DNA of 64,000 nt, taken from positions 41,553 to 105,552 of the forward strand of contig JAUSEW010000027.1 in assembly GCA_030651475.1 (NCBI GenBank). Reading direction: 5' to 3'. Source of the DNA: Candidatus Levyibacteriota bacterium (GTDB lineage: Bacteria > Patescibacteriota > Microgenomatia > Levybacterales > UBA12049). A program made the translations under genes and the position numbers. Numbering within the stretch: position 1 is the first letter of the stretch; every line of letters starts with the position of its first letter. Positions 4,011 to 63,432 of this stretch are shown here, piece after piece. The notes under the pieces were generated by a model. It saw only the letters and a list, made by a program, of their open reading frames with translations. It was not told where the DNA came from and made no database searches.

Positions 4011-4905
4011 GGTTGATATTATATGTGCTTTGTGCGGTAAAAATCAACGTACAGAAGTTTTATACAAATCTACATTTAACAAAAGGCAGATAACTAGCGT
4101 TACTTACTCGGCGCGCAGACCTCCAGACAGAATTCATTATAAGATACTTAAATGCCAGAAATGCGGATTAATTTTCTCATCCCCTGTTCTTGAGCCTTCA
4201 AAAATAACAGAATTCTACAGAGAGAGCGTTTGCAGCTACGATGAACAAATCCCTTATCTTATTAAGGCATACATGAGAGAATTTCAGCGGATAGAACCTT
4301 TCTTACCCCAAAATCCAAAAATTTTAGAGATAGGATGCGGAAACGGATTTTTTCTTGAAGCGCTAAAGAAAAGGGGGATAAAAGATTTGTTTGGGGTAGA
4401 ACCTAGTCCGAAAATGGTTTCCGAGGCGCCTTCATATCTCAAAAAGAGGATTACTAGCGATGTTTTTAAGCAAAAACAATTTCCGAATAATAATTTTGAT
4501 GCTGTTTTATGTTTTCACACTCTAGATCATGTTGTCAATCTAAATAAATTCATTAAATCGGTTCGAGAAATTCTTAAACCCGGAGGATTTATTTTTTTTG
4601 TTGTACACAATACAGATAGTATATTTGCAAAACTCTTTGGAGAAAAATGGCCCATTTTTGATATTGAACACATAGTCCTTTTTAACAAGAAAACCCTACG
4701 CACTTTATTTTCTAAACACCAATTTATAAATATTCAGACACTTGATGTTAGAAACTTTTACCCTCTTTCTTATTACGTGAACATGAGTCCAATATCTTTA
4801 AAAATCAAGAATATTTTATTAAATATATTGAATAAATTTAAACTGCAAAATATTAGTTTCCCTTTGGTCGGGAGCAACATTGGAATTATTGCGCAAAAAA
4901 AGTAA
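4009..4905 (+). CDS. Class I SAM-dependent methyltransferase with N-terminal CxxC...CxxC zinc ribbon (short paralog of the TylC3-like C-methyltransferase at 23820..25055)
   Basis: CALCGKN...CQKCG zinc ribbon, then LEIGCGNGFF motif I. The ATG start overlaps the start codon of the divergent gene at 4008-4010. Confidence 0.6.
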   Translation: MVDIICALCGKNQRTEVLYKSTFNKRQITSVTYSARRPPDRIHYKILKCQKCGLIFSSPVLEPSKITEFYRESVCSYDEQIPYLIKAYMREFQRIEPFLPQNPKILEIGCGNGFFLEALKKRGIKDLFGVEPSPKMVSEAPSYLKKRITSDVFKQKQFPNNNFDAVLCFHTLDHVVNLNKFIKSVREILKPGGFIFFVVHNTDSIFAKLFGEKWPIFDIEHIVLFNKKTLRTLFSKHQFINIQTLDVRNFYPLSYYVNMSPISLKIKNILLNILNKFKLQNISFPLVGSNIGIIAQKK

Positions 4906-4943
4906 ATTTTGCTTAAAAAATCCTGCTTTGCTAGAATAAAGAT

Positions 4944-45010: not shown

Positions 45011-46735
45011 ATGAAAGTACTAGGGATTCATTTTCAGAGTCATGATACGTCTGTTGCTCTAGTCGAAAATGGCAATATTCTTTACGCCGCTAGCAACGAG
45101 CGTTTTTCAAGAAGAAAAATGGATGCTAATCCTCCTTTGGATGCTTTGAAAGATTGTCTTTCATACTCAAAGACAAAGCCACAAGATATCGATAAGGTTG
45201 TTTTCGTTGGGGATCCGTTTCCGTATTCTTACGTGGGGAGATTAAAAGAATTATCATGGCCATTTATATATACAAAAGGACGTTATCTTTTATGGTGGAG
45301 AAAACCGCATCTTATTTTATGGGAGTTATTTATTGCAACAGGGATTCCTAGCTTTTTATACAGAGAGTTACTTCCACGCATTTTAATTAGGGGAAAACTT
45401 AATGGATTTAAAGGAAAATATTCATATGTGCATCACCATTTTGCTCACATGTATTCTGCTTATTACACATCCGGTTGGAAAGACTGTCTTGTTATGTGCA
45501 GTGAAGGTTCTGGATTTTCTGAAACAATGTCTATCTATCATGTAAGGAAGGGGGAATGGATAAAAGTGGTAGAAAATTATTTACCTCATTCGGCAGGCAA
45601 ATTTTATGAACTGGTTACTGTTATGTTAGGTTTTAATGTATTGAGGCACCCAGGGAAAATCACCGGACTAGCAGCATATGGTAATCCAAACACAGTATAT
45701 AATGCAGTAAAAGATCTTTTATCGGTTAACGGGTTAAAGCTTAAGCTCAATTACGAAAAGTATTTAAAGTGGGGAATTAACTATTCCCTTACGAAGACTT
45801 TACCGAAAGAGTTAAGGGGAAATAGAAGGGAAGATATTGCTGCTGCATTTCAAAAGAGACTTGAAGAATGCATAGTCGAAATTGTCAAAAAAGCAGTAGA
45901 AAAAACCGGAGAAAAGAAGCTTTCGTTTGCGGGTGGGGTGGCGGCCAATGTTAAGCTTAACCAAAGACTGCATGAAGAAGCGGGAATAAATGAAATTTAT
46001 ATACATCAGGCAATGGGGGACGATGGCTTAGCTCTGGGTGCAGCATTACACACAGCGTTTTTAAATGGATTTCAAATAAAGCAATCGGATAATGTTTATT
46101 TCGGACCGGATTTTAGCGAACAAGAAATTAAAAAGAGTTTAAATAAATTTAATTTAAAATTTAGTAAAGAAAATAACATAGAGATAAAAATAGCAAAGCT
46201 TTTAGCAGAAAGTAAAATTGTGGCCAGGTTTAATGGAAGAATGGAATATGGGCCCAGAGCATTGGGCAATAGATCCATTCTTTACAAAACGACAGACAGA
46301 GGGGTTAACAATTGGCTTAATAAACGTCTTAAAAAAAGATCGGATTTTATGCCTTTTGCGCCCGTGACTCTTGATTCGTTCGCAGATAAATGCTTCAAAA
46401 ACCTTAAAGGAGCTGAATATGCTGCTCGATTTATGACAATTACTTTCGATGTCACGTCTTATATGAAAAAGCTTTCCCCTGCTGTTGTTCATGTGGATGG
46501 TACCGCAAGACCGCAGATTATAAGAAGTAAAGATAACCCCAGTTATTATAAACTACTTGAGGAATACTACAAACTAACCGGTATACCGTCTCTTATTAAC
46601 ACAAGTTTCAATATGCATGAAGACCCAATAGTTTGTAGTCCGGATGATGCAATAGAATCATTTTTAAGCGGAAGTCTAGATTATTTGGCAATTGGCAATT
46701 ATTTAGTAAGTTATGAGCAAAATAATAAAAAATAG
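45011..46735 (+). CDS. Carbamoyltransferase (NodU/CmcH/NovN/TobZ family)
   Basis: N-terminus VLGIHFQSHDTSVALVENGNILYAASNERFSRRK is the canonical Carbam_trans_N signature. HHHFAHMYSAYY metal-binding His cluster. About 570 aa, typical for the family. Confidence 0.85.
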   Translation: MKVLGIHFQSHDTSVALVENGNILYAASNERFSRRKMDANPPLDALKDCLSYSKTKPQDIDKVVFVGDPFPYSYVGRLKELSWPFIYTKGRYLLWWRKPHLILWELFIATGIPSFLYRELLPRILIRGKLNGFKGKYSYVHHHFAHMYSAYYTSGWKDCLVMCSEGSGFSETMSIYHVRKGEWIKVVENYLPHSAGKFYELVTVMLGFNVLRHPGKITGLAAYGNPNTVYNAVKDLLSVNGLKLKLNYEKYLKWGINYSLTKTLPKELRGNRREDIAAAFQKRLEECIVEIVKKAVEKTGEKKLSFAGGVAANVKLNQRLHEEAGINEIYIHQAMGDDGLALGAALHTAFLNGFQIKQSDNVYFGPDFSEQEIKKSLNKFNLKFSKENNIEIKIAKLLAESKIVARFNGRMEYGPRALGNRSILYKTTDRGVNNWLNKRLKKRSDFMPFAPVTLDSFADKCFKNLKGAEYAARFMTITFDVTSYMKKLSPAVVHVDGTARPQIIRSKDNPSYYKLLEEYYKLTGIPSLINTSFNMHEDPIVCSPDDAIESFLSGSLDYLAIGNYLVSYEQNNKK

Positions 46736-49700
46736 CAAATTTTTTGAAATATTGTTTATTTTTTTAATATCCCTTACTCCTTTTCTTTGGCTTCGAAATG
46801 GGCAAGTGATACTGGGGCATGATTCGGGTTTTCGTTTAGACTCGTTTACATATTGGCTCAATCTTCTTTACTCTTGGAACCCAATTCCCAATTTTGGTTC
46901 TGATTGGTCAATATTCAAAGGATTTCTCATCACCCAGCTTCCTGAAGCTTTATTTACGACACTAACGGGATCATTAGGTGATGGTCAACTGCTAACGTTT
47001 ATTTTCTGGTTTTTCGCTATAGGACTTTCTATGTATATTTTCGTTAACTCCTTCCATAAAGACAGTAAATTTTGGTTTTTAAGAATATTTGCAAGTACGT
47101 TTTATATGTATAATTTTTTTCTTTTGCAGGCGTGGTTTATCGCGGAGAGAGCGAAATTTTCGATTTACATAGCATTACCATTATGTGTGCTTTTATTATA
47201 TAAAACATTAACAAAGCAGATATCCTTATGGAAGGGTCTTTTCTTCTTTTCTCTACTTTTATTCTTCTTTAATGCCGGAGGCGCGCCAACATTCCTTGGC
47301 TCCTTTTTTGTTTCTTTTGCTGCAACGCTTATATATTTTGCTATAAGAAACTTTCAAAAAGGCGGTATACGTGAGCTTACATATGCTCTTAAGGTTGGTA
47401 TTTTGTTTCTTGTGGGATTCATTATAGTAAATGCCTATTGGATTCTTCCCCAAGCCTATTTGATGTTTCATAATTATAGTTCTTCGTTGGTTGCAAGCGG
47501 AGGGATAAACGGAATTATAGGATGGGAAGCAACAATAAGTAAAAACGCGAGTTTAATAAATTTGCTGCGCTTACAGGGAATACCTGATTGGTACAAAAAT
47601 CCAATCCATCCTTATTCATCATTTTATCTAGAAAATGTTTTTCTTATTGGGTTTAGTTTTTTATTCCCGATCATATTGGTAGGATCACTTATTTTGATTG
47701 CTGCTAAGGGATGGAAAAATCACAATAGGCAACTTCTACTGTTAATATTGGCTTTGTTTCTTATCGGCATTATTTTTACAGCAGGTTCGCATCCGCCAAC
47801 TGGTTTCTTATACGTATTACTCATTAAATATATACCGGTTTTTCCTATTTTCAGATCTTCATTCTACAAATTTGGTGTTACTTTTTGGTTTCCAGCTATT
47901 TTTCTTATTTCGTATGGACTTTATGCTATCCTTACGAATTACATAAAGAATAAAAAATTGTACTTTTTATGTTCAGCCTTAGCTGTTGTTGCTATTCTTG
48001 CTTTTCACTTTCCTTACTTTAGCGCCAATTTCTTTACATGGAATAAGCCATATTCTACGAGAGTAAAAATTCCAAGCTATGTAGCCACGATGTCTAATTA
48101 CATAAATACTCTTCCTTCATCCACGCGAATACTTTTGCTGCCAAGCCTTGATCCGGTTTTTCATGCAGATATAACTGATTGGAATTTCTGGAGCTTGGAT
48201 TTGCTGCCTCGTTTAACAACAAATAAATCTATAGTTGCCGATAGTGCCGGGGCTCCTCCGATTATAGGAAATATGTATAGAGCGATTGAGCTTGGAAACG
48301 AAGAACAGTTTTTACGTTTAGCATACATAAGCGGTGTTAATAAGATACTCTGGAGAGATGATGCCGTTTATAGCAACGGAACGAAAGTCAATGCGCAACT
48401 GCATTATAGAGAAAATACAATTAAAAGCTTTCATTCCCTACGACTTTTAAAGCAAGAGGGAAAGTGGAGATTATACGATATTGCGTTTGCCAAATTGCCT
48501 ATGGATTTTTTTGTTCCTGATAATATTAGCGTAAATTCAAAATACAATTCATACCAAGGACAGCTTATGGCAGAAAAATCAACAACAGGCTCTGCTTTAT
48601 TAGAAGACGCGAAATTTTCCTTGGGTAATGTTGTTAATAAGCAATATATTCAGGCGAATTGCGTATTGTGCGAAATGCACGCTTTCGAAAATATTGCAGC
48701 ACGGATTGATGTTCCTCAATTACGCCTTTTGCCGAATTCAAAACTCTATTTTTTAGTGAAGGCTAAAGAATATATAGGTCTACTAAGGACTAAGGGTTAC
48801 GAAGCTAGGGCGTTAACGGACATGATTTATTCATACAGAAGAATAGCTGAAATAAATAATTTATTAAGGAAAAACAATGATGATCATAATTTTAACCAAG
48901 AAGTTTTTTCAAACATTTCTCGTTTCAAAAAAAATATAAATAATGCTCTGGCAGAGGCGAATCTATTGTCTGTAGAGAAACGAAACGATCTTCTTATAAG
49001 AATATATGCATACCTTTACCACGAAAATAGCAGTACTAATTCATTTATCCATAATAGTCAGGCTAACGCAGCCATTGACAATCTTGAGTTATTTATTGTC
49101 CAAAAAATGAACATGTTGGAGAATACAATATGGATGACTAAAGATAAAACAGATAAGAAATATTTTGTTGATATTCCATTCGCCGGAAATTACTCTTTAG
49201 TATTTACTAACATAGGTCAAGTAACGCCAAGCGAAATATATCTTGACGGAGAGAGAATAAATGCTCAAGACGCCCGTATGGAAAAGGGGACCCATAAATT
49301 AGAAGTTATATATTCTCCGCTTGAAAATATGTTAGTTAAGCCAGCCGATGGGGAACTCTCTTTCAATATTCCCAACGGGGAGAAGGAGAGATTTACTCTT
49401 AAGCCGCTTTCCCGCGCAAATTTATACACAGTGTCATTTGATTATCGTTTTAATAGCGGTATTCCGCCAAATATAAAAATTACTCAAGATGCGATTGAAA
49501 GCGATAATAAGTACGAGCTTACACGGAAAGACGGAGAGCTATTGAGCGCAGAAGGAACATGGAATAGATATGAATATATTGTGGGTGGCGATCCTAATTC
49601 GAAAAATTTCTCCTTAGATTTCCTTATTTGCTGCAAGAACGGAAAAAATTCTAACTTTACAATTAAAAATTTAAATGTGGCTCAATTGTTCGAACCGGGA

Positions 49701-50111
49701 GTTAATTTTGTCAGTACGAATACAAATGTTCAAGATACTCGGGTTGGGAATATCTCCTATAGACAGCTTGACCCTACGAAATATATTGTTTCCGTTCATA
49801 ACGCAGCTACTCCATATGTCTTGTCGTCTAGGATCGGATACGATGCTGGTTGGAAAGCTCTTGTTCTTGATTCATCCAAATCGCAAAATAATAGCAGTTT
49901 TGCTACTGCTTTATTCCAGAATGGGCTACAACAAATTACTCCTTATAAGACAAACACTTTTGCCAACGCTTGGTATATAAATAAAAAAGGGAGTTATGAT
50001 GTGCTTATAGAATATGAGCCGCAGCGATTCTTTTACATTGGCGGGTTAATTTCTCTGATTTCTTTCCCGCTTTTGGCATCACTATTTATTTTTAAAGGAA
50101 AAAAACAATGA
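46713..50111 (+). CDS. Large (1132 aa) YfhO-like GT-C membrane protein: N-terminal multi-TM domain, ~600 aa extracytoplasmic beta-rich domain, C-terminal TM anchor
   Basis: About 13 TM helices in the first ~470 aa. The C-terminal GYDAGWKALVLDSS...KGSYDVLIEYEP...TM motif is shared with 1..933 and 50482..52401. Confidence 0.45.
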   Translation: MSKIIKNSKFFEILFIFLISLTPFLWLRNGQVILGHDSGFRLDSFTYWLNLLYSWNPIPNFGSDWSIFKGFLITQLPEALFTTLTGSLGDGQLLTFIFWFFAIGLSMYIFVNSFHKDSKFWFLRIFASTFYMYNFFLLQAWFIAERAKFSIYIALPLCVLLLYKTLTKQISLWKGLFFFSLLLFFFNAGGAPTFLGSFFVSFAATLIYFAIRNFQKGGIRELTYALKVGILFLVGFIIVNAYWILPQAYLMFHNYSSSLVASGGINGIIGWEATISKNASLINLLRLQGIPDWYKNPIHPYSSFYLENVFLIGFSFLFPIILVGSLILIAAKGWKNHNRQLLLLILALFLIGIIFTAGSHPPTGFLYVLLIKYIPVFPIFRSSFYKFGVTFWFPAIFLISYGLYAILTNYIKNKKLYFLCSALAVVAILAFHFPYFSANFFTWNKPYSTRVKIPSYVATMSNYINTLPSSTRILLLPSLDPVFHADITDWNFWSLDLLPRLTTNKSIVADSAGAPPIIGNMYRAIELGNEEQFLRLAYISGVNKILWRDDAVYSNGTKVNAQLHYRENTIKSFHSLRLLKQEGKWRLYDIAFAKLPMDFFVPDNISVNSKYNSYQGQLMAEKSTTGSALLEDAKFSLGNVVNKQYIQANCVLCEMHAFENIAARIDVPQLRLLPNSKLYFLVKAKEYIGLLRTKGYEARALTDMIYSYRRIAEINNLLRKNNDDHNFNQEVFSNISRFKKNINNALAEANLLSVEKRNDLLIRIYAYLYHENSSTNSFIHNSQANAAIDNLELFIVQKMNMLENTIWMTKDKTDKKYFVDIPFAGNYSLVFTNIGQVTPSEIYLDGERINAQDARMEKGTHKLEVIYSPLENMLVKPADGELSFNIPNGEKERFTLKPLSRANLYTVSFDYRFNSGIPPNIKITQDAIESDNKYELTRKDGELLSAEGTWNRYEYIVGGDPNSKNFSLDFLICCKNGKNSNFTIKNLNVAQLFEPGVNFVSTNTNVQDTRVGNISYRQLDPTKYIVSVHNAATPYVLSSRIGYDAGWKALVLDSSKSQNNSSFATALFQNGLQQITPYKTNTFANAWYINKKGSYDVLIEYEPQRFFYIGGLISLISFPLLASLFIFKGKKQ

Positions 50112-50485
50112 AAAGATTACTAAATTTATTTTTAAATTTGTCTAAGAAAACGGAAAAAGTTACTTCTGAATATCAGGGGAGACTTTTATTCTTGATGATT
50201 ATCCTTTTAACTCTAACTGTTTTTGCAAATTTACCTTATTTTAATATTCTACTAACAATCTCTAACATTATATGGATTATGATTTTGGTTTCTTTATTCA
50301 TTTTTCGAATACGGATGAAAAATTTATTATTGATAGCGATTATTCTTATTGGAACTGCTCTAATCAGCGTTTTAGCTGATAATCGAGAAGTGGCGGAAAT
50401 TTTAGGAAATTCGATTTACCTTATCTTAATCATAGTTTTTACTTCCAATTTCGTTGAATATTTAAAAGAAATTAAAAAATCATGA
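50108..50485 (+). CDS. Small polytopic membrane protein (3-4 TM), unknown function
   Basis: 125 aa, mostly hydrophobic. ATGA-coupled between the two YfhO-like genes. Confidence 0.35.
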   Translation: MKRLLNLFLNLSKKTEKVTSEYQGRLLFLMIILLTLTVFANLPYFNILLTISNIIWIMILVSLFIFRIRMKNLLLIAIILIGTALISVLADNREVAEILGNSIYLILIIVFTSNFVEYLKEIKKS

Positions 50486-52401
50486 TGTTTAATTTTCCTT
50501 TCCTTGATTGGTTTTCTCAGAAAATAATCGTGGGCGGAGATTGGCGGTTTTTTTGGCCGGAAAACATTGGTGACTTCGTTACCTTTCCGACCGCCTGGGA
50601 TGCAAGTCTAAATACAGGTTTAGGTTCTCCATCTTTTAGCCTCATGTGGATAAATACTTATCTCAATTTTACTGCCGTATTTAGCAAGCTTGGTCTATCA
50701 TGGAATTTAATCGGTTTGTTATTTTGGATGCTGCCTGCCATAGCTCTGTCCTTTTTTTCCGCTTTTTATTGTTTCAAATATCTTTTTCCAAAAAGAACAA
50801 AATATGGGATTCTGGCTGGGATTATTTATCTCTTTAACACGTATTTCCTGATGGTATTTACCGGAGGCCAATTGGGTATCTCTCTGGCTTATTCCATCGC
50901 TCCTTTTGTATTTTTAACTTTCACAAAAAGCATAGATAATCCGACTTTTAGAAAAAGTTTGTTTTCTTCTTTGGTACTCGGATTACAAATGCTTTTTGAT
51001 CCAAGGTTGGTATATATAACCTTCATAGCAATATTCATTTATTGGCTATTTAACATAAAAAATATGAAACAGGTAATTTTTGCTTTCGTTCTTCCTTTTC
51101 TAATAGGATTCATGCTCCATAGCTATTGGATTGTTCCTCTAATCTTGACAAGATCATCTTCCATACAGGCGGGCTTTACTAGCTTGTTGGGGTTAAGATT
51201 TTTTAGTTTTTCTGATTTCTCACACTCTTTATCTTTTCTTCATCCAAATTGGCCGGAAAATATATTCGGTAAAGTATATTTCCTGAAACCTGAATTTTTA
51301 TTACTTCCAATACTGGCTTTTTCATCATTACTTTTTATTAAGAAAGAGACTAAGGAAAAGAAAAAAAATATATTATTTTTTGCAATTTTAGGATTACTTG
51401 GAGCATTTTTGGCAAAGGGAGCAAGCGATCCATTTGGTATAACATATGAGTTTGCGTTTCGATATATTCCTGGATTTGTTGCGTTTAGGGATCCTACGAA
51501 ATTCTATTTGCTGATATCTTTGTCTTACTCAATGCTTATACCCTTTGCGATCTTGTCTTTATCTAATTGGATTTCTTTACGATTCAAAATGAAAGGTTAT
51601 ATATCAAACGTCCTGTTAGTGGTTTCCATTTCTTACGTTTTGGTTTTGGCAAGTCCTGTTCTCGTGAGGCAATTTAATCGAATAGCTACGCCCCATATGA
51701 TACCTAATGACTACGTAGAATTAAAGAATTTCTTAGGCATCCAGCCTCAATTCTTTCGCACCCTTTGGATTCCTTCCATGCAAAGATTTGGTTTTTTTTC
51801 CAATAATCATCCTGCAATTTCGGGCATTAATAATTTTAACGCAAACGCACCTAAGGATTTTGATACATTTCTTAGTGAGGCCGCGGTTCAATACGTAATA
51901 GTACCGTACGATTCGGAAAAGGAGTTATTCTTAAAAGACAGGAAATATGATGAGAAGCAGTATGATCAAACGGTAAAGTCGTTAAGAAATATAGAATGGC
52001 TAAAGAAAATAGAGGGTTTTGGGAAAATTGCGGTTTTTGAAAACTCAAATTATAAAGATCATTTTTGGAGCCGTAACTCAAACCTTAAAATTAATTATAA
52101 GTATATTAATTCCACAAAATATTATGTTGATATTGAAAATTCCAAAAAAGGAGATGTTTTGGTATTTTCGGAGGGGTTTGATAAAAATTGGCAAGCGCAA
52201 ATTGACAGTAGTTTGATAAATTCAAAGCCCTATGATAAGCTCTATAATAGCTTTGTTTTGTCAAAGGGCGGAAGCTACACGGTTGAAGTTGTTTATTCTG
52301 TCCAGAAGTGGGTAAATATGGGATTAATTGTGAGTTTTGCTACCTTAACGATTTTGATAGGCAGTTTGCTATATATACAAATTAAAAATAAATATGATTA
52401 G
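50482..52401 (+). CDS. YfhO-like GT-C membrane protein (639 aa)
   Basis: Multi-TM N-terminal domain. C-terminal FSEGFDKNWQAQIDSS...KGGSYTVEVVYS...TM motif paralogous to 46713..50111 and 1..933. Confidence 0.45.
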   Translation: MMFNFPFLDWFSQKIIVGGDWRFFWPENIGDFVTFPTAWDASLNTGLGSPSFSLMWINTYLNFTAVFSKLGLSWNLIGLLFWMLPAIALSFFSAFYCFKYLFPKRTKYGILAGIIYLFNTYFLMVFTGGQLGISLAYSIAPFVFLTFTKSIDNPTFRKSLFSSLVLGLQMLFDPRLVYITFIAIFIYWLFNIKNMKQVIFAFVLPFLIGFMLHSYWIVPLILTRSSSIQAGFTSLLGLRFFSFSDFSHSLSFLHPNWPENIFGKVYFLKPEFLLLPILAFSSLLFIKKETKEKKKNILFFAILGLLGAFLAKGASDPFGITYEFAFRYIPGFVAFRDPTKFYLLISLSYSMLIPFAILSLSNWISLRFKMKGYISNVLLVVSISYVLVLASPVLVRQFNRIATPHMIPNDYVELKNFLGIQPQFFRTLWIPSMQRFGFFSNNHPAISGINNFNANAPKDFDTFLSEAAVQYVIVPYDSEKELFLKDRKYDEKQYDQTVKSLRNIEWLKKIEGFGKIAVFENSNYKDHFWSRNSNLKINYKYINSTKYYVDIENSKKGDVLVFSEGFDKNWQAQIDSSLINSKPYDKLYNSFVLSKGGSYTVEVVYSVQKWVNMGLIVSFATLTILIGSLLYIQIKNKYD

Positions 52402-53566: not shown

Positions 53567-54124
53567 ATGAAAATAGGAATTGACGTTTCACAGCTTGCTT
53601 TTGAGGATACTGGAGTAGCGAATTATCTTTCGAATTTAATTAAGCATTTATTAGCTACAGATAAGAAAAATCAGTATATACTGTTTTATTCATCATTGAG
53701 GAGAAAATTTCCCCACTTCGCCAAGGCTTCCCTCGACTACGCTCGGGACAAGTCGGCGGGCAAGCAAAATTTCAAAATAAAGAGTTTTAGATTTCCGCCT
53801 ATGCTTTTGGATTTACTTTGGAATAAACTTCATATGGTGCCGATAGAGTGGCTGATTGGGGATGTTGATATTTTTATAACTTCTGACTGGACAGAACCGC
53901 CAACTAGAAAAGCGAAGAAAGCTACGATTCTATACGACTTAATTGTCTATAAATATCCGAACGAAACTGATAATAAAATTGTTGAGACACAAAAAAGAAA
54001 GCTTAAGTGGGTTAAAAAAGAGTCTGACATGGTTTTTTGCATATCTGAATCAACTGCAAAAGACGCGGAAGAGGTTTTAGGCATTGATAAAAATAAATTA
54101 AGGATTATTTATCCGGGAATTTAA
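53567..54124 (+). CDS. GT4 N-terminal-domain-only ORF: truncated paralog of the downstream GT4 (possible pseudogene or split GT-B)
   Basis: MKIGIDVSQLAFEDTGVANYL... parallels MIIGIDGNEANVEKRVGIGEY... of the next gene. Ends ...RIIYPGI* exactly where the paralog continues ...VTYPGIKEEL... into its C-domain. Confidence 0.4.
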   Translation: MKIGIDVSQLAFEDTGVANYLSNLIKHLLATDKKNQYILFYSSLRRKFPHFAKASLDYARDKSAGKQNFKIKSFRFPPMLLDLLWNKLHMVPIEWLIGDVDIFITSDWTEPPTRKAKKATILYDLIVYKYPNETDNKIVETQKRKLKWVKKESDMVFCISESTAKDAEEVLGIDKNKLRIIYPGI

Positions 54125-54128
54125 CATT

Positions 54129-55268
54129 ATGATTATTGGAATAGATGGTAATGAGGCGAATGTTGAGAAAAGAGTGGGGATTGGGGAATATGCGTTCGAA
54201 CTGCTTGAGCAATTCGAGAAATTTAGAATTCAGAATTTAGAATTCAGAATTTATTTGAAAAATGAGTCAATAAACGATATGCCGAAAGAAAGAAAGGGAT
54301 GGCAATATCGTGTAATCGGGCCAAGAAAGCTTTGGACTCAATTTGGTTTACCTCTGGATTTATTTTTTCATAAACCAAGACCTGATGTTTTTTTTACGCC
54401 TACTCATTACGCGCCTCGTTTTTCTCCGGTACCAACCGTAATATCCATAATGGATTTGTCTTACGTTCACTTTCCAAAACTTTTTAAAAAATCAGACTTG
54501 TATCAGCTGAAAAATTGGACAGCTTATTCGGCAAAAAATGCGAAAAAAATCTTAACTATCAGTAAATTCAGCAAAGATGATATAATCAAAACATATCAAA
54601 TACCAGGAGATAGGGTTGTGGTTACGTATCCTGGAATTAAAGAAGAATTAGGAATTATGAATCAAGTTTACCCTGAGCAAAGTCGAAGGGAATCAAGCGA
54701 ACTTCAAAGCAAGTATGGAATTAAGGGGAAATATATTTTGTTTGTAGGAACGTTACAACCAAGAAAGAACATTATTCGTTTGATCGAAGCATTTAGTAAA
54801 ATTTCCTTAATCCTTAATCCTTTATCATTAATCATTATCGGTAAGAAGGGGTGGATGTATGAAGAAATTTTGGAAGCGCCAAAAAAGTTTAACATTGTAA
54901 ATAGAGTCAAATTCTTGGAATTCGTGTCCAACGAAGACCTTCCGTTTTTATACCAAAACGCAGAGTGTTTTGTCTTGCCTTCGCTTTATGAAGGATTTGG
55001 TCTGCCGGTTTTGGAAGCAATGAGATATGGGTGCCCTTGCGTTATTAGCAACATTAGCAGTTTGCCTGAAGCAGGCGGAGATGCGGCTTTTTATTTTGAT
55101 CCAAGTAACGCATCAGATATTGCTGCGAAAATAGAAATGGTTTTAAATGACGAAAAATTAAGAAAAGAAATGATAGAAAAAGGTTATAAACAGGTTAAAA
55201 AGTTTAGCTGGGAAAAAACAGCACAAGAGACGCTGAAGGTCTTGGAGGAAGTAGCAAGAAATGGATAG
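54129..55268 (+). CDS. Glycosyltransferase, GT4 family
   Basis: EGFGLPVLEAMRYGCPCVISN motif and full two-domain GT-B layout. Confidence 0.8.
   Translation: MIIGIDGNEANVEKRVGIGEYAFELLEQFEKFRIQNLEFRIYLKNESINDMPKERKGWQYRVIGPRKLWTQFGLPLDLFFHKPRPDVFFTPTHYAPRFSPVPTVISIMDLSYVHFPKLFKKSDLYQLKNWTAYSAKNAKKILTISKFSKDDIIKTYQIPGDRVVVTYPGIKEELGIMNQVYPEQSRRESSELQSKYGIKGKYILFVGTLQPRKNIIRLIEAFSKISLILNPLSLIIIGKKGWMYEEILEAPKKFNIVNRVKFLEFVSNEDLPFLYQNAECFVLPSLYEGFGLPVLEAMRYGCPCVISNISSLPEAGGDAAFYFDPSNASDIAAKIEMVLNDEKLRKEMIEKGYKQVKKFSWEKTAQETLKVLEEVARNG
54219..54254. repeat. About 2.5 copies of a 14-bp tandem repeat (AATTTAGAATTCAG-like) inside the GT4 CDS
   Basis: aaatttagaattca gaatttagaattca gaatttat read directly from the sequence. 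Encodes FRIQNLEFRIY. Confidence 0.7.
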
Positions 55269-55827: not shown

Positions 55828-56715
55828 ATGGTGGAATTATCAATAATTATACTTAATTACAAGACTTCAGACTTAACAATTGCCTGTCTTAAATCTATAA
55901 TTTCCAAATTCAACAAAGAGCTGGAGTTCGGTAGATTCGAAATAATAGTCGCGGATAATGGCTCCAAGGACGCTTCGGTAGAAAGTATTAAGTATTATGT
56001 ATCAAGTATTAAGTATAAAAATATTAAAATTTTAGAAAATAAAGAAAACTTGGGTTTTGCCAAAGGAATGAATAAGGCATCGCAAAACGCAAAAGGAAAA
56101 TATCTGCTATTTCTAAATTCCGACACTGAAATGCTTGATAAAGGACTTACGGACATGATTGAATTTTTGGATTCTAACAAAAAAGTTGCCATTTTAGGCG
56201 GAAAGTTTATGAATAAAGATGGTTCGCTCCAGCCATCCTGCGGAAAATTCTATACGCTTTTTAATCTTTTTCTAATGCTTATCGGCACAGAAAGGCTTGG
56301 GTTTCTGCGTGAGAGCCCATCTATTGTTAAAAAAGTTGATTGGGTAAGCGGGGGATTTATGATGGTAAAACGCGATATATTCAAAAAATTGGGTTGTTTT
56401 GACGAGAATTTCTTTATGTATATGGAAGATATGGATATTTGCTATAGAGCGAAAAAAGAAGGTTGGGATACGTATTTTTTCCCCAGAGCTTGCGTAGTTC
56501 ATAATGGGCATGGAAGCAGCAGCAGGACATTTGCTATAATTAATATATATAAGGGTATTTTGTATTTTTACAAAAAACACAACAGCTATTGGCAGTATAT
56601 TTTAGCCAGGACGTTACTTACTGCGAAGGCAATAACTGCAATCTTTTTTGGGTTCCTAACTAACAATATCTATCTTAAAAATACCTACAAAAGCGTTATA
56701 AGAATCGAGCTATGA
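55828..56715 (+). CDS. Glycosyltransferase, GT2 family
   Basis: LSIIILNYKTSDLT...EIIVADNGSKD...GFAKGMN...FLNSDTEM motifs. Confidence 0.75.
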   Translation: MVELSIIILNYKTSDLTIACLKSIISKFNKELEFGRFEIIVADNGSKDASVESIKYYVSSIKYKNIKILENKENLGFAKGMNKASQNAKGKYLLFLNSDTEMLDKGLTDMIEFLDSNKKVAILGGKFMNKDGSLQPSCGKFYTLFNLFLMLIGTERLGFLRESPSIVKKVDWVSGGFMMVKRDIFKKLGCFDENFFMYMEDMDICYRAKKEGWDTYFFPRACVVHNGHGSSSRTFAIINIYKGILYFYKKHNSYWQYILARTLLTAKAITAIFFGFLTNNIYLKNTYKSVIRIEL

Positions 56716-59700
56716 AAATATTACGTTTCATTTCGAATAATTTTTTGTTTCTGATTACTCTTTTTCTGCTGGCGTTTATTCCTCTTTATCCCAAACTGCC
56801 TATTGTTAATGTACAGCATACCTGGGTTTATATCCGCGCAGAAGACTTTATCGTTACGCTTGTTGTTATTCTATGGATTTTCTTACTCTTGCTTAAGAAA
56901 GTTACGCTAAAAACCCCGCTTACCTTACCTATAATATTATTTTGGCTTGCTGGCGGAATAGCAACTCTTCATGGGGTGCTTTTCATTTTCCCAACACTTT
57001 CGGACGTTTTTTCCAACGTAGCATTTTTAAGCTTTCTAAGAAGGATAGAATATATATTTTTATTCTTCATTGCTTTTACAAGCATAAAAGAAAAAAAGTT
57101 TATATCTTACGTTACTATTGGGTTGGCGGTTACGCTCCTTCTAGTTGTAGGATACGGTTTGGGGCAGAAATTTTTAGGATTTCCTGCGTATTTGACAATG
57201 AATGAAGAATTTGCCAAAGGAGTTCCTATTCAGCTGTCAGAGCTTTCTCGAATTCCATCTACATTTGCAGGTCATTATGATTTGGCAGCCTATTTGGTTT
57301 TGATAGTTCCTTTAATCACAAGTATGGTTTTCGGATTTAAAAACTGGTTTGTAAAGATGTTCTTATTGGGTACGGCAGCTTTGGGTTTTGTATTGCTTGC
57401 TATGACGGTATCTAGGGTTTCCTTTTTCGTACTCTTAATTTCTATGGTCGTGATGCTTATCTTGCAAAAAAAAAGACTGCTTATTATATCTTTATTTTTA
57501 ATAGTTATTGTATTTTTAAGCTTTTCTTCAAGTCTTCTGCAGCGGTTCGGAAATACTCTCAAAGAAGTAAACGTATTGGTTGACGTAAACACAGGGGGAG
57601 CGATAGGCGAAGTAAAAGAAGTTCCTGCTAAATATTTTGAAAATAAAATTGTCAAAAGACAATTTATCTCAAATGAAGAAGCTAAACTATCTAGTGCATC
57701 TGCAATTCTGCCTTTCTCATTAATTCCTCCTGTGGCATCTCTTATAGTAGAACCAAATAGTCCGACCGGAGAAAATTTGCCGCAAGGAACAAGCTACGTA
57801 AACCTTCCTCTTTCTCCCATTACCAAAAAAGTACAGCAGTTCTTTTATCAAAAATCTAATAATAGGGGGGGAATAATAGCAGAGGAAATAACTGTTTCCT
57901 ACGGAGACTTTGTGATGAAGAAAGCTTTGGCCTATGATCTTTCATTTACGACCAGATTTCAGGGAGAATGGCCAAAAACGCTACTGGCTTTTACTCGAAG
58001 CATTTTTTTAGGAAGCGGTTATGGATCAGTTAGCCTTGCCGTAGATAATAATTACTTGCGAATTTTGGGAGAAACGGGAGCATTTGGATTTATCTCTTTC
58101 TTATCGATTTTCTTAATTGCAGGCATATATATAAAAAAAATACTTCCAAACGTAGATTCCCCTATTGTCCGAAGCTTCATCTTAGGTTTTATCGCCGGTA
58201 CATTCGGATTATTATTAAATGCACTTCTTATCGATGTCTTTGAGGCATCGAAAATTGCTTTTACATACTGGCTTCTAATGGGAGTAACGCTTGGAACCTT
58301 AGAGCTATATAGAAAAGAAGAAATAGATCTTTATCAAAATTTCAAAAAAGTAGTAATTTCCACGTACGCAATTATTATTTATCTATTTACAATTATGATA
58401 GGATTATTCTCTTCTGCTTTCGGTTATTATTTTGTTGGCGATGACTTTACCTGGTTTAGATGGATTGTGGATTGCTATAGCGGAGCCATTAAAAATGGGT
58501 TACAACAATGTCAGCCTTTTGCCATAACGATTATTCAGTACTTTACGCAGGCTGATGGATTTTTTTACCGCCCGGGAGCAAAATTGTACTTTGATTTGAT
58601 GTATTCAGTATTTTGGCTTAATCAATCAATGTATCATTTCGTTTCATTTTTTCTTCATTTTTCCGTTGCAGTATTGGTATTCTTGATTTCTAAAAGGATT
58701 TTAAAAAATTATTTCTTGGCTATTGTTAGCGGCGTATTTTTTCTTATACTTAGCGGAGGATCTGAAGCGATTTTTTGGATTTCTTCTACGGGTTTTCTTT
58801 TTAACGCAATGTTCGCTCTTCTTGGATTACTCTTTTTTATTTATTGGAAGGAAAGAGGAAAAATAATTTACCTTGTTATTTCCTGCGTCTCCATTGCCTT
58901 AAGCTTATTATTTCACGAACTTGGAATTATGGCGCCATTTCTCGTAATTCTTTACGATACTGTTTTTGGAGAAAAATCCGCAGCAAATAAATTATCTAGG
59001 AAATCATCCTATCTATTTTTACTATCCCCAATTTTGCCCTATCTGATTTTACGCCTCGTAGCGGGAAGTCATTGGTTCAATGGTGACTATAGCTATAACT
59101 TACTTAAGCTTCCGTACAATATTATCGGCAATGCAATTGGATATATAATGCTTACTTTTTTTGGACCCGCATCCTTATCTTTTTATGAGGGGTTAAGGAA
59201 TTTCTCAAGAGCGCATTCAATATTTGCAATAGTAGCGTCACTTATTATGATTTTCCTTATTATTAAATTTTATCGACTGGTGGTTAAAAACATAGATTTG
59301 GAAGAGGAAAAAATTGTGACCTTTGGATTTTTGTTTTTCATATTAGCGCTATTACCGTTTCTAGGACTAGGCAACATTGCCTCTCGCTATAGTTATCTGT
59401 CTTCCTTTGGACTTATGATTCTTTTTGTATTCTTTCTCAAAAAAGCATATGGTTATTTACTTTTTAACGGTAAATATATCGCCATGTCAAGCGTAGTTTT
59501 AATAGCGATTATCTTTAGTATGGCGCAACTTTTTCAATTGCAAAAATTAAGTTCAGATTGGCGAGTAGCCGGTGAAAAGTCACAAAATTTTCTTATATCT
59601 CTTAATAAAGTTTATACGGAGGATTGGGCAAAGGAACACGTTCAATTGTATTTTGTTGATACCCCAATTCGAAACGGAGAAGCATGGATATTCCCCGTTG

Positions 59701-59870
59701 GGCTTCCCGATGCAATATGGCTTACTGTAAAAAACAATAATCTTTCAATTTTCCAGCCTTCAAATTTACAGCAAGCTTTAGATCAGGCGGGAACATCATC
59801 GAATGCAAAAGTTTTAAAGTTTGATAGCGATGGAAATATTACAGAAGTATTTAGAGTAAAAACACAATGA
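56712..59870 (+). CDS. Fusion membrane protein: N-terminal O-antigen polymerase/ligase-like (Wzy_C/WaaL-like) domain plus C-terminal GT-C-like multi-TM domain (1052 aa)
   Basis: Residues ~1-520: about 10 TM helices, a large extracytoplasmic loop, then VDNNYLRILGETGAFGFISFL (cf. the HNxYL..L.E.G..G Wzy_C signature). Residues ~540-1052: a second ~12-TM domain beginning FGYYFVGDDFTWFRW (DD motif), paralogous to 37458..39092. Confidence 0.5.
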   Translation: MKILRFISNNFLFLITLFLLAFIPLYPKLPIVNVQHTWVYIRAEDFIVTLVVILWIFLLLLKKVTLKTPLTLPIILFWLAGGIATLHGVLFIFPTLSDVFSNVAFLSFLRRIEYIFLFFIAFTSIKEKKFISYVTIGLAVTLLLVVGYGLGQKFLGFPAYLTMNEEFAKGVPIQLSELSRIPSTFAGHYDLAAYLVLIVPLITSMVFGFKNWFVKMFLLGTAALGFVLLAMTVSRVSFFVLLISMVVMLILQKKRLLIISLFLIVIVFLSFSSSLLQRFGNTLKEVNVLVDVNTGGAIGEVKEVPAKYFENKIVKRQFISNEEAKLSSASAILPFSLIPPVASLIVEPNSPTGENLPQGTSYVNLPLSPITKKVQQFFYQKSNNRGGIIAEEITVSYGDFVMKKALAYDLSFTTRFQGEWPKTLLAFTRSIFLGSGYGSVSLAVDNNYLRILGETGAFGFISFLSIFLIAGIYIKKILPNVDSPIVRSFILGFIAGTFGLLLNALLIDVFEASKIAFTYWLLMGVTLGTLELYRKEEIDLYQNFKKVVISTYAIIIYLFTIMIGLFSSAFGYYFVGDDFTWFRWIVDCYSGAIKNGLQQCQPFAITIIQYFTQADGFFYRPGAKLYFDLMYSVFWLNQSMYHFVSFFLHFSVAVLVFLISKRILKNYFLAIVSGVFFLILSGGSEAIFWISSTGFLFNAMFALLGLLFFIYWKERGKIIYLVISCVSIALSLLFHELGIMAPFLVILYDTVFGEKSAANKLSRKSSYLFLLSPILPYLILRLVAGSHWFNGDYSYNLLKLPYNIIGNAIGYIMLTFFGPASLSFYEGLRNFSRAHSIFAIVASLIMIFLIIKFYRLVVKNIDLEEEKIVTFGFLFFILALLPFLGLGNIASRYSYLSSFGLMILFVFFLKKAYGYLLFNGKYIAMSSVVLIAIIFSMAQLFQLQKLSSDWRVAGEKSQNFLISLNKVYTEDWAKEHVQLYFVDTPIRNGEAWIFPVGLPDAIWLTVKNNNLSIFQPSNLQQALDQAGTSSNAKVLKFDSDGNITEVFRVKTQ

Positions 59871-61340: not shown

Positions 61341-62534
61341 ATGAAAATATTGCTCGTATCATCATTTTTGCCCTATCCTCTTTATTCCGGCGGGCACATC
61401 CGTTTATACAATCTCATAAAAGGTTTATCCGGAAAACACAAGATAACTCTTGTCTGCGAAAAAAGAGATTATCAAACAGAAAAGGATGTTTTGGAGGTAG
61501 AAAAAATTTGTGAAAAGGTAATAACGGTTGATAGAAGAAAACAGTGGTCTTGGCAAAATATAGCAGTATCAGGTTTCTCTATAAATCCATTTTTAGCAGT
61601 TGGCCACACGAATAATGATATGAGAAACAAAATTGGCGAATTATTAAGCAATACGGATTTTGATTTAATTCACGTTGAAACTTTTTACGTTTTGCAAAAT
61701 GTACCCCAGACTAAAATCCCTATTGTTCTAGCAGAGCATAATATAGAGCATTTAGTTTATGAGCGTTTTGCCAAAAATGCGCCCTTTTTTATAAAGCCGT
61801 TTCTGTATGTAGATATCGCTAAGATGAAATATCAAGAACAAAAGGCTTGGGATAGAGCAGGAAAGTTAATTGCGGTATCAAGTCAGGATAAAGAAATGAT
61901 GGGAAAAAGAAACGTTGAGATCGTATCAAACGGAGTAGACATTAATAAGTTTAAAGTTAGAAGTGAGAAGTCAGAAGTTGAAGGTTCTGAGAAGAGAATT
62001 TTGTTTATTGGCGATTTTAAATGGATAGAGAATAGAGATGCGGTCAAATGGATATTAAAGGAGATATGGCCTGAAATAAAATCAAAAATCAAAAATCAAA
62101 AATCAAAATTAATACTTTGGATAGTTGGGAGAAGGATTCCGCAAGAGATTAGAAATTTAGGAGGAGAAAATGTTATTTTTGATGAGAATGCTCCGGAAAA
62201 TACTAATTTAATTTACCAGAAAGCAGATGTATTGTTAGCGCCAATTCGAGTTGGAGGAGGAACAAGCTTTAAAATTCTGGAGGCAATGGCAAGCGGAGTG
62301 CCTGTTGTCACAACAGATCTTGGAAATTCGGTTAATGCACAAGCGGGCAGGGAAATTATTATTGCAGAAAATTCATCGGATTTTGCAAAAAAGACAATAG
62401 AAATTTTAACCAATAACAAGGCTTATATAGATATTGCAAATAACGCAAGAAAATTCATAGAAGAAAATTATACTTGGGAAAAAATTATTAAAAAATTAGA
62501 AGCGGTTTATGAGGAGGCAGTTAAAAATGATTGA
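61341..62534 (+). CDS. Glycosyltransferase, GT4 family
   Basis: GGGTSFKILEAMASGVPVVTTDLGN motif and GT-B layout. Confidence 0.8.
   Translation: MKILLVSSFLPYPLYSGGHIRLYNLIKGLSGKHKITLVCEKRDYQTEKDVLEVEKICEKVITVDRRKQWSWQNIAVSGFSINPFLAVGHTNNDMRNKIGELLSNTDFDLIHVETFYVLQNVPQTKIPIVLAEHNIEHLVYERFAKNAPFFIKPFLYVDIAKMKYQEQKAWDRAGKLIAVSSQDKEMMGKRNVEIVSNGVDINKFKVRSEKSEVEGSEKRILFIGDFKWIENRDAVKWILKEIWPEIKSKIKNQKSKLILWIVGRRIPQEIRNLGGENVIFDENAPENTNLIYQKADVLLAPIRVGGGTSFKILEAMASGVPVVTTDLGNSVNAQAGREIIIAENSSDFAKKTIEILTNNKAYIDIANNARKFIEENYTWEKIIKKLEAVYEEAVKND
62078..62105. repeat. (AAAATCA)x4 heptanucleotide tandem repeat inside the GT4 CDS
   Basis: aaaatca aaaatca aaaatca aaaatca read directly. Encodes KSKIKNQKSKL. 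Confidence 0.9.
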
Positions 62535-63432
62535 TTTATCAATAATAATCGTTAATTACAATACGAAGGTTTTTCTAAAGAATTTATTAGATTCGATTGA
62601 GAAGTCTATTTCAAAAAAGATTACCTATGAAGTTATTGCTGTTGATAATGCATCAACTGATGCTTCGGCATCAGCAATTTCCAATTTCCAATTTCCAATT
62701 TCCAATTTACGACTGATTATAAACAAAAAGAATTTGGGGTTTGCGAAAGCGAATAATCAGGGAATAAGAGCTTCACAGGAAAGCCGTTACCTTTTATTTC
62801 TAAATCCCGATACTTTGATGCAGGAAAATACAATTGAAGAAATGATTAAGTTTATGGACACACATGAAGACGCAGGCGCAGCTACGTGCAAAATCGTAAT
62901 GCCAAATGGAGAGATTGATGATGCAAGCCATCGGGGTTTTCCAACGCCTTGGAACTCATTTTCGTATTTTTCCGGTTTTTCAAAAATATTCCCAAAATCA
63001 AAATTATTTAGCGGGTACAATTTGGGATGGATGGATTTTGGGAAAGCGCATGAAATAGATGCCTGCGCAGGAGCATTTATGGTAGTAAGACGTTCAGCTG
63101 GAGAAGCGATTGGCTGGTGGGACGAAGATTATTTTTTTTATGGAGAAGATTTGGATTTTTGCTATATGTTAAAACAAAAAGGCTGGAAGGTTTATTACGT
63201 CCCGCAAGTTTGGATATTGCATTACAAAGGGGTTGCCGGAGGAATTAAGAAAATTTCGCAGAATATTAGTACGGCAGATTTGGAAACCAAAAGAAGAGCA
63301 ACCAAAGCAAGATTTTCTGCCATGAAAATCTTCTACAAAAAACACTATGAAAAAAAATATCCCAAAATCACAACCTGGCTTGTTAAGCTGGCAATAAACC
63401 TAAAATTACGTTTAGCTATGAAGAATGCGTAG
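62527..63432 (+). CDS. Glycosyltransferase, GT2 family
   Basis: LSIIIVNYNTKVFL...VIAVDNASTDAS...GFAKANN...FLNPDTLM motifs. The start is set at the ATGATTGA overlap (62527) rather than 62509. Confidence 0.75.
   Translation: MIDLSIIIVNYNTKVFLKNLLDSIEKSISKKITYEVIAVDNASTDASASAISNFQFPISNLRLIINKKNLGFAKANNQGIRASQESRYLLFLNPDTLMQENTIEEMIKFMDTHEDAGAATCKIVMPNGEIDDASHRGFPTPWNSFSYFSGFSKIFPKSKLFSGYNLGWMDFGKAHEIDACAGAFMVVRRSAGEAIGWWDEDYFFYGEDLDFCYMLKQKGWKVYYVPQVWILHYKGVAGGIKKISQNISTADLETKRRATKARFSAMKIFYKKHYEKKYPKITTWLVKLAINLKLRLAMKNA
62677..62704. repeat. (ATTTCCA)x4 heptanucleotide tandem repeat inside the GT2 CDS
   Basis: atttcca x4 followed by attt, read directly. Encodes SNFQFPISNL. Confidence 0.9.

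Follow-up and report, generated by a model that had tools for sequence, protein, structure and literature searches.

We analyzed a stretch of 64,000 nucleotides (nt) from a Candidatus Levyibacteriota bacterium (contig JAUSEW010000027.1), referred to below as the window, in which two adjacent glycosyltransferase (GT) genes, GT4b and GT2b, each contain a perfect tandem array of a seven-nucleotide unit. Our preferred reading, which we hold to be reasonably probable, is that arrays of this class are slow, low-frequency contingency switches of GTs, akin to phase variation, rather than a purely neutral by-product of replication. The evidence comprises the arrays themselves, the frameshifts that a change in their unit number would cause, their location within protein loops, the conservation of their positions, and natural copy-number variants in orthologues, including variants that shift the frame.

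Two perfect heptanucleotide arrays in adjacent glycosyltransferase genes

The two arrays and the genes containing them are as follows.

61341..62534, + strand: GT4b gene, 397 amino acids (aa), GT-B fold (intact open reading frame (ORF), Pfam, AlphaFold2)
62078..62108, + strand: array (AAAATCA)x4.4, 'site 2' of GT4b, codons 246-256 (sequence, Tandem Repeats Finder)
62527..63432, + strand: GT2b gene, 301 aa, GT-A fold (intact ORF, Pfam, AlphaFold2)
62675..62708, + strand: array (CAATTTC)x4.9, GT2b, codons 50-61 (sequence, Tandem Repeats Finder)

The first-pass annotation described both repeats as perfect and internal to GT4 and GT2 coding sequences, and the sequence, Tandem Repeats Finder, the intact ORFs, and Pfam all agree. 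The GT4b array spans 31 nt with 100% matches and encodes KSKIKNQKSK. The GT2b array is also perfect, spans 34 nt, and encodes ISNFQFPISNL; its unit, CAATTTC, is ATTTCCA in the register of that annotation. The arrays had been given as four-copy repeats ending at 62704. Their perfection stands, but the actual copy numbers are 4.4 and 4.9, and the fourth ATTTCCA unit runs up to position 62704. Within the 64 kb, these are the sole perfect arrays with at least three copies and a period of at least 5. The 900 Markov simulations (300 each at orders 1, 3, and 5) did not produce a single perfect 7-mer array with three or more copies.

GT4b was assigned to family GT4 on the basis of its Glyco_transf_4 and Glycos_transf_1 / Glyco_trans_1_4 domains, and GT2b to family GT2 on the basis of Glycos_transf_2. 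Identical proteins are annotated by NCBI as GT4 and GT2 family members in a metagenome-assembled genome of Candidatus Levybacteria. A PDB sequence search with the two enzymes returned no match at E <= 1e-10. The stop codon of GT4b overlaps the start of GT2b. Both tracts lie inside the ORF that they would regulate; the simple sequence repeats (SSRs) of phase-variable genes lie in the ORF or the promoter.

Effect of unit number on the reading frame and placement in the protein models

Changes in unit number were followed in silico. Adding or removing one or two units at either array brought in a stop codon 8-27 codons downstream, and changes of three units remained in frame. With one or two units changed, the GT4b product would measure 254-272 aa instead of 397, and the GT2b product 60-78 aa instead of 301. 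The earlier argument that a 7-bp unit, not being a multiple of three, must frameshift the gene when gained or lost was thereby confirmed, with both products truncated. For read-through to be possible, the unit must be free of stop codons in every frame; this was the case on the coding strand for 15 of the 16 distinct units in the census of related loci described below.

The AlphaFold2 models of both enzymes were of good quality, with a mean predicted local distance difference test score (pLDDT) of 91 for GT4b and 86 for GT2b, and a predicted template modeling score of 0.87 for each. In the GT4b model, residues 246-256 cover the end of a helix and the loop preceding the second strand of the C-terminal domain (pLDDT ~79), and residues 200-216, in the interdomain linker that we call site 1, have a pLDDT of ~70. 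Residues 50-61 of GT2b form a helix end and a loop that leads from the DNASTD strand to the next strand (pLDDT 70-78). In these models, the array-encoded residues fall in the least confident, peripheral or surface segments. This position in peripheral loops explains the tolerance of in-frame arrays and of length variants of 7 aa.

A mechanism can be proposed on this basis. The arrays are intragenic heptanucleotide microsatellites, each coding for a peripheral loop of low model confidence that is tolerated in frame, and replication slippage would alter their unit number. A change of one or two units would deprive GT4b of most of its C-terminal domain, or cut GT2b after ~60-80 residues, and a three-unit change would merely lengthen or shorten the loop by 7 residues. 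An early stop in GT4b may also uncouple the translation of GT2b, given the overlap of the two genes. Subpopulations with different combinations of active GTs would then carry different surface or protein glycans. That the two window arrays vary, that switching is reversible and fast enough, and that the variation is adaptive are inferences.

Copy-number variants in natural populations

No strain-level relative of the window was found in the genome, metagenome, and protein collections searched. Both proteins (P0001, P0151) are singletons in a collection of 15 billion proteins, and the closest loci have protein identities of 83-85%. We therefore turn to related contigs, designated here by L numbers. 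A comparison of orthologous genes for copy-number polymorphism had been recommended in the first-pass annotation. It yielded variants in the pairs L060/L061 and L076/L077, in L062, and in 7-aa length classes, so that tract length was found to be polymorphic at orthologous sites between near-identical strains. In orthologues, natural variants of minus one and minus three units occur at site 1 of GT4b, which is represented in the window by a degenerate array.

61954..61983, + strand: degenerate array AAGTNAG x4.4, 83% matches, GT4b codons 205-215 (site 1, interdomain linker)

The alignment of L060 (JGI 3300004210) with L061 (ENA ERZ27293400) is free of mismatches over 14,340 nt. Its lone gap corresponds to exactly three AATTTCA units at site 1 of GT4b (4.9 vs. 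1.9 copies). L062 (ENA ERZ27245644) is 99.4-100% identical to L003, L025, and L034, and the sole indel is one AAGTTCA unit that it lacks at the same site (3.7 vs. 4.7 copies). As a result, GT4b is divided into two ORFs, one of 238 aa and one of 165 aa. In the same sample, ERZ27245644, the upstream GT4 gene GT4a' is intact (L078, 363 aa) and GT4b is broken (L062). The opposite was found in sample Ga0114945 (L034) from the same population, in which GT4a' is broken and GT4b is intact. We rejected a heptamer-unit change as the cause of the GT4a' frameshift in L034, which results from A9 becoming A7 at the margin of the heptamer array of that gene. The reciprocal intact and broken states of the two genes resemble the phasotypes of known phase-variable systems.

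A difference of 21 nt of array separates L076 from L077 (96.8% identical) at site 2, where the window has its 62078 array. The inserts at this site fall into length classes of 4/11/18 and 6/13/20 aa across 120 GT4b orthologues. A similar periodicity was seen in GT2b for the spacer between DNxSxD and NxGFS. Among 120 orthologues, 41 have a 20-aa spacer without an array, 45 have the array type of 23 aa, and 3 have 16 aa (23 minus 7), the others having 18/25 or 20/27 aa. Pairs of GT2b orthologues within one cluster also differ by 7 aa at this spacer. A further sign of instability is GT4a of L082-L085, which is split into two ORFs exactly at a heptamer array (see below). These findings indicate that arrays of this class are genuine slippage-prone microsatellites that are able to inactivate GTs, and that they do so in nature in the orthologues.

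Conservation of the arrays across Levybacteria and their confinement to one sub-cluster

The two perfect arrays had been presented as an isolated pair, a description that did not hold. Four more imperfect period-7 arrays are present in the window in GT genes of the same neighborhood, one of them being the site 1 array above, and all belong to a lineage-wide, position-conserved class with a period of 7 only. The remaining arrays and their genes are listed below.

54129..55268, + strand: GT4a gene, 379 aa, with two period-7 arrays
54220..54253, + strand: period-7 array AATTYAG x4.6 (perfect as a 14-nt unit x2.4), near the 5' end of GT4a
54804..54837, + strand: degenerate array TCCTTAA x4.9, 88% matches, at relative position 0.59 of GT4a
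55828..56715, + strand: GT2a gene, 295 aa, with one period-7 array
55983..56016, + strand: imperfect array AAGTATT x4.9, 85% matches, in GT2a at the position equivalent to the GT2b array

All six period-7 arrays of the window sit in four GT genes (~4.1 kb) of one sub-cluster at 53.5-63.4 kb, which reads GT4 N-domain protein (GT4N), GT4a, hexapeptide acetyltransferase, GT2a, a 1052-aa membrane protein, PMT_2, GT4b, and GT2b. The association with surface-structure or glycan genes that is expected of phase variation is seen here, with 6/6 arrays in GT2/GT4 genes. No period-7 array was found in the remaining 54 kb, despite at least 15 more GT2/GT4 genes there, and none of period 5, 6, or 8-15 anywhere in the window. 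Homopolymers of at least 8 nt occur throughout the window, which fits its GC content of 35%, with no special tie to the sub-cluster.

The sub-cluster is syntenic in many contigs of Levybacteria and Patescibacteria, with GT4b identities of 46-85%. Most of these contigs contain heptamer arrays of 4-5 copies at the same offsets (~610 and ~740 nt in GT4b; ~150 nt in the GT2 genes). The units vary, with AAATGGC, AAACTCA, AAGTTCA, AAATCTC, and AATTTTC among them, and orthologues of 52-85% identity have different units at the same codon positions. For example, the GT2b array of the window (AATTTCC x4.9) corresponds to AAATCTC x4.6 in L001, the two proteins being 84% identical. Independent point mutation cannot yield different perfect units at one orthologous site, which points to repeated contraction and re-expansion or to replacement. 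The restriction of the arrays to one glycan module and their fixed positions over deep divergence argue for behavior like that of a contingency locus.

A census of perfect arrays with at least 3 copies was carried out on 303 kb of non-redundant Levybacteria-like loci. It returned 33 arrays of period 7, as compared with 0-1 for each of periods 5, 6, and 8-12. The arrays are A/T-rich and mainly intragenic, 30/33 being within GT2/GT4 ORFs, and a few are intergenic (L005 5814, L060 2363). Copy numbers lie between 3.3 and 5.3 with a mode of 4.4-4.9, and none of the 33 is longer.

Rate of change and alternative explanations

Several observations weigh against switching of this kind. The behavior of the two window arrays is deduced from their class, not observed in this genome. 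Between near-identical contigs, ~20 of ~22 arrays were unchanged and ~2 differed. The unchanged arrays include the four shared by L002 and L023 (99.8% identical), the remaining arrays of the L003 group, and seven arrays across L066-L072 and L075 (8 of the 10 contigs of the population L066-L075). The pair L060/L061 might represent two assemblies of overlapping read sets, which would still mean two co-existing alleles. A crude ratio at the consensus level put the per-array change at only tens of times the per-site substitution rate. Classical phase-variable loci switch at ~1e-5 to 1e-2 per generation, and our rough estimate suggests a per-array rate far below this range. Classical contingency tracts are also long and variable, a trait that is typical rather than strictly defining and that the present tracts, with 3.3-5.3 copies, do not have. 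The 23-aa array-type spacer shared by 45/120 GT2b orthologues looks more stable than hypermutable. Finally, the cluster occurs with zero arrays in L007, L026, L031, L033, and L036, which indicates that the arrays are dispensable.

The high proportion of unchanged arrays argues for low switching rates, and together with the short tracts it leads us to favor slow contingency-like switches. The suggestion that surface-glycan phase variation may operate in this bacterium survives in part: orthologous arrays do vary and sometimes break their genes, but the comparisons do not show high-frequency reversible switching. Other small indels were absent from the near-identical alignments compared.

A number of further candidate variants were examined and rejected. 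The apparent array frameshift in GT4b of L014 proved to be a 1-nt deletion ~20 nt downstream, in a contig with a coverage of 4.6x. Megablast 'gaps' between L003 and L025 were gone on realignment with blastn, and the truncated GT2b of P0279 was traced to a chimeric contig end. Differences among L066-L075 were mostly scaffolding N-runs or duplications, the seven arrays being constant. The frameshift at the GT4N array of L001 was not accepted as a clean unit change, the deficit being 14 nt beside the array with no close intact allele, and the parsing of the site-2 hairpin insert of L001 as an insert plus a one-unit loss was dropped as ambiguous. Outside the arrays, a 117-nt in-frame deletion in a GT4 gene was seen on comparison of L007 (3740-3856) with L037; the contigs are otherwise identical, and there is no array at this place.

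The strongest rival is a neutral origin, which we judge to be clearly less probable than slow switching, but a serious candidate. According to this explanation, short heptamer arrays are generated and homogenized by slippage biased toward 7-nt units and survive only in surface loops in which an in-frame insertion is harmless, so that the frameshifts are ordinary deleterious mutations or early decay and not a selected switch. Heptameric repeats are indeed known to be in excess in the genomes of many bacteria, for which the footprint of the polymerase has been held responsible (Mrazek 2007, cited in PMC4692102). The low-pLDDT loops, the short and narrowly spread copy numbers, the unchanged state of most near-identical pairs, and the few intergenic arrays all fit this explanation, and genes of the cluster decay in other ways too (the truncated GT2a of L001 and the deletion in L037). 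It is less easily reconciled with the lack of arrays in at least 15 GT2/GT4 paralogues that have the same folds, and in ~35 other genes of the window. Moreover, the same codon positions are kept down to 52% identity even though contraction to 1.x copies is irreversible, and two GT genes of one population show reciprocal intact and broken states.

Tuning at the protein level is improbable in our view. Here, in-frame steps of three units (7 aa) would set the length of a linker or loop and thereby alter acceptor specificity or partner binding. Most variants are in frame (L060/L061, L076/L077, and the 7-aa length classes), and the arrays are at the GT-B interdomain linker and in loops near catalytic motifs. 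However, in-frame variants are over-sampled, because assemblies and gene callers favor intact ORFs, and L062 is a one-unit frameshift allele. A 7-nt repeat gives just ~1.5 repeats at the peptide level. The encoded peptides of orthologues are also wholly unlike each other (KSKIKNQ, GKWKMAN, NFKFQIS), which means that the peptide sequence itself is not conserved.

We assign a similarly low probability to a role of the arrays as DNA or RNA, either as landing pads for GC-rich hairpin inserts or as mRNA elements with adjacent hairpins. In at least six instances a GC-rich insert lies precisely within an array or next to it, stable hairpins are enriched 5' of arrays, and the stem at the GT2 site is kept through paired codon changes (see below). 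Most arrays, however, have neither insert nor hairpin, their unit sequences are not conserved, and the inserts may just accumulate where insertion is tolerated. No Rfam family matched anywhere in the window.

Assembly or sequencing error can be dismissed almost entirely: all data are metagenome assemblies, some with low coverage (L014) or scaffolding Ns (L066-L073), but the arrays (28-37 nt) are far shorter than reads and than the k-mer of the last assembly round (k141), have counterparts at homologous sites in dozens of assemblies made independently, and differ by exact unit multiples in otherwise identical sequence.

Comparison with known systems

The closest parallel to the switches proposed here is provided by Neisseria, in which a heptanucleotide repeat controls the phase variation of the GT gene pglE (PMC7157529). 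This gene belongs to the pgl module for pilin or protein O-glycosylation in N. meningitidis and N. gonorrhoeae, and several GT genes of the module vary independently to give combinatorial phasotypes (PMC7157529). The present loci share the 7-nt tract within a GT ORF and the module with several independently variable GT genes, and the reciprocal states of GT4a' and GT4b are comparable with phasotypes. They differ in that the tracts have ~4-5 copies, lie in mid-gene loops, and are of period 7 only, whereas other pgl genes of Neisseria use poly-G. The organism here is an uncultured groundwater bacterium of the candidate phyla radiation (CPR), not a host-adapted pathogen, and the likeness is one of description, with no homology claimed.

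The contingency loci of Haemophilus influenzae are mostly tetranucleotide, but some are heptanucleotide, such as those of the hmw1A and hmw2A promoters. Intragenic heptanucleotide tracts with frameshifts have also been described, including (AATTTTG)14 in hmw1A (PMC2651432). Both systems place SSRs in surface-structure genes and are subject to slipped-strand mispairing. The H. influenzae tracts have 13-38 units in the cited cases and are highly strain-variable, whereas those found here have at most 5.3 units and are mostly unchanged.

An excess of heptameric repeats has been reported for bacteria, including the cyanobacterial short tandemly repeated repetitive (STRR) sequences and the GGGAATC repeat of Xanthomonas (PMC4692102; Mrazek et al. 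2007, cited there). As in those genomes, period 7 is over-represented relative to other periods, and both length and sequence vary at the same locus among related genomes. The STRR and Xanthomonas heptamers are mainly intergenic and G-rich, with G-quadruplex potential (PMC4692102), unlike the intragenic and A/T-rich arrays of the present loci.

CPR bacteria, or Patescibacteria, are ultra-small and mostly uncultured episymbionts with reduced genomes and few recognized defense or regulatory systems. To our knowledge, next to nothing has been reported on how they vary their cell surface, a property relevant to attachment to hosts and to the adsorption of phages. No paper that ties SSRs or phase variation to CPR bacteria, Patescibacteria, Microgenomates, or Levybacteria came up in our literature searches. 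Heptanucleotide GT switches in CPR bacteria would therefore be new with respect to the literature searched, and the type of mechanism is already known. The significance of the arrays lies in a probable sequence-encoded, mutation-based switching of GTs in CPR bacteria, with one-unit and three-unit variants and reciprocal intact and broken states in natural populations. They also offer a clean natural case for the long-noted and unexplained excess of heptameric repeats in bacteria.

GC-rich inserts and hairpins at the arrays

A hairpin directly precedes the GT2b array and ends one base 5' of it.

62657..62674, + strand: 7-bp stem with a UUCG loop, CTGATGC-TTCG-GCATCAG, predicted at -10.6 kcal/mol (sequence, folding)

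This hairpin may stall replication or act in the mRNA. Equivalent stems are kept in relatives via paired codon changes (Ala..Ala to Gly..Pro), as in L001 (CCGACGG/CCGTCGG) and in GT2a of L024 (GATGCC/GGCATC). A stable hairpin was found directly 5' of 7/31 arrays, as compared with 7.9% of random 28-mers.

TCCCG-loop-CGGGA hairpins and longer GC-rich inserts are nested in the heptamer arrays of GT genes, always in frame. They are located at the following positions.

L001 10752-10768 and ~4880-4910
L014 2422-2436
L045 3359-3405
L066 11440-11456 and ~11420-11547

The genes with inserts in or replacing the arrays are GT4b and GT2a of L001, GT4N of L014, a gene of L045, and GT2b of L066. In the last case, 87 nt of GT2b are present in L066 and absent from L073 and L074 (95-98% identical). 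Translated inserts recur in many orthologues as IPQVAGQ, THSANSGQ, IPSMTDKG (from CCGTCGATGACGG), and LRQDFGGQA. The window itself contains a 63-nt stretch of this kind at 53706-53768, in the 185-aa GT4 N-domain gene (53567-54124). This stretch, which includes the GC-rich insert AATTTCCCCACTTCGCC...GGCGGGCAAGCAAA, is translated in frame to FPHFAKASLDYARDKSAGKQ and occupies exactly the site where the orthologues L001, L004, L008, and L014 have (AATTTTC)x4.5. The stretch has a folding energy of -17.7 kcal/mol and is single-copy in the window.

Judging from their sequences and positions, the inserts may constitute a family of mobile mini-elements that targets the arrays; no transposase linked to them was identified. 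They bring to mind the Rickettsia palindromic elements and the small dispersed repeats of cyanobacteria, which are likewise small, palindromic, and tolerated in frame inside coding genes. The present inserts differ from these in measuring 15-100 nt, in being GC-rich in a genome of 35% GC, and in their nesting in heptamer arrays.

A broader picture can be offered, although tentatively. Levybacteria, and possibly Microgenomates more widely, may possess a phylum-wide 'phasome' made of heptanucleotides only, located at fixed loop codons of one glycosylation module. It would be kept by second-order selection over more than 45% protein divergence and would give combinatorial glycan phasotypes in natural populations of groundwater. 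A so far undescribed family of GC-rich hairpin mini-inserts (TCCCG...CGGGA, and the longer 'CTTCGCC...GGGCAAGC') would moreover use these tracts preferentially for in-frame integration into coding sequence.

Further observations on the cluster

The whole window (1-64000) is a glycan-biosynthesis supercluster with at least 12 GT2 and at least 7 GT4 genes. It also contains membrane GTs of the PMT/PMT_2 type (at 9690, 16097, 25109, and 59867), four DegT aminotransferases, several epimerases/dehydratases, methyltransferases, and a carbamoyltransferase. Large unannotated membrane proteins are encoded at 46713-50111, 50482-52401, and 56712-59870.

In L082-L085, GT4a consists of two ORFs (e.g., L082 1918-3076), a 188-aa N-domain and a 191-aa C-domain. 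The break falls exactly at a (GATTAAA)-type array with an in-frame TAA, and four contigs from two projects share the identical arrangement. Considered alongside the GT4 N-domain gene of 185 aa, which is conserved and stands alone, this makes functional split GT-B enzymes a possibility. A gene of 122-123 aa of the bAvd / 23S_rRNA_IVP family lies between the GT4 N-domain gene and GT4a in L060/L061 (2418-2786) and L082-L085 (L082 1520-1891). This family comprises accessory proteins of diversity-generating retroelements. No bAvd gene is present in the window, and no reverse transcriptase was noticed near the bAvd genes of the related clusters.

The sequence of the 55983-56016 array in GT2a, GAAAGTATTAAGTATTATGTATCAAGTATTAAG, encodes ESIKYYVSSIK; it recurs unchanged in the paralogue GT2b, both in L003 (~2060-2100) and in several further lineages (P0172, P0178, P0227, P0242). 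The shared array suggests either an exchange of array segments between paralogues or strong convergence.

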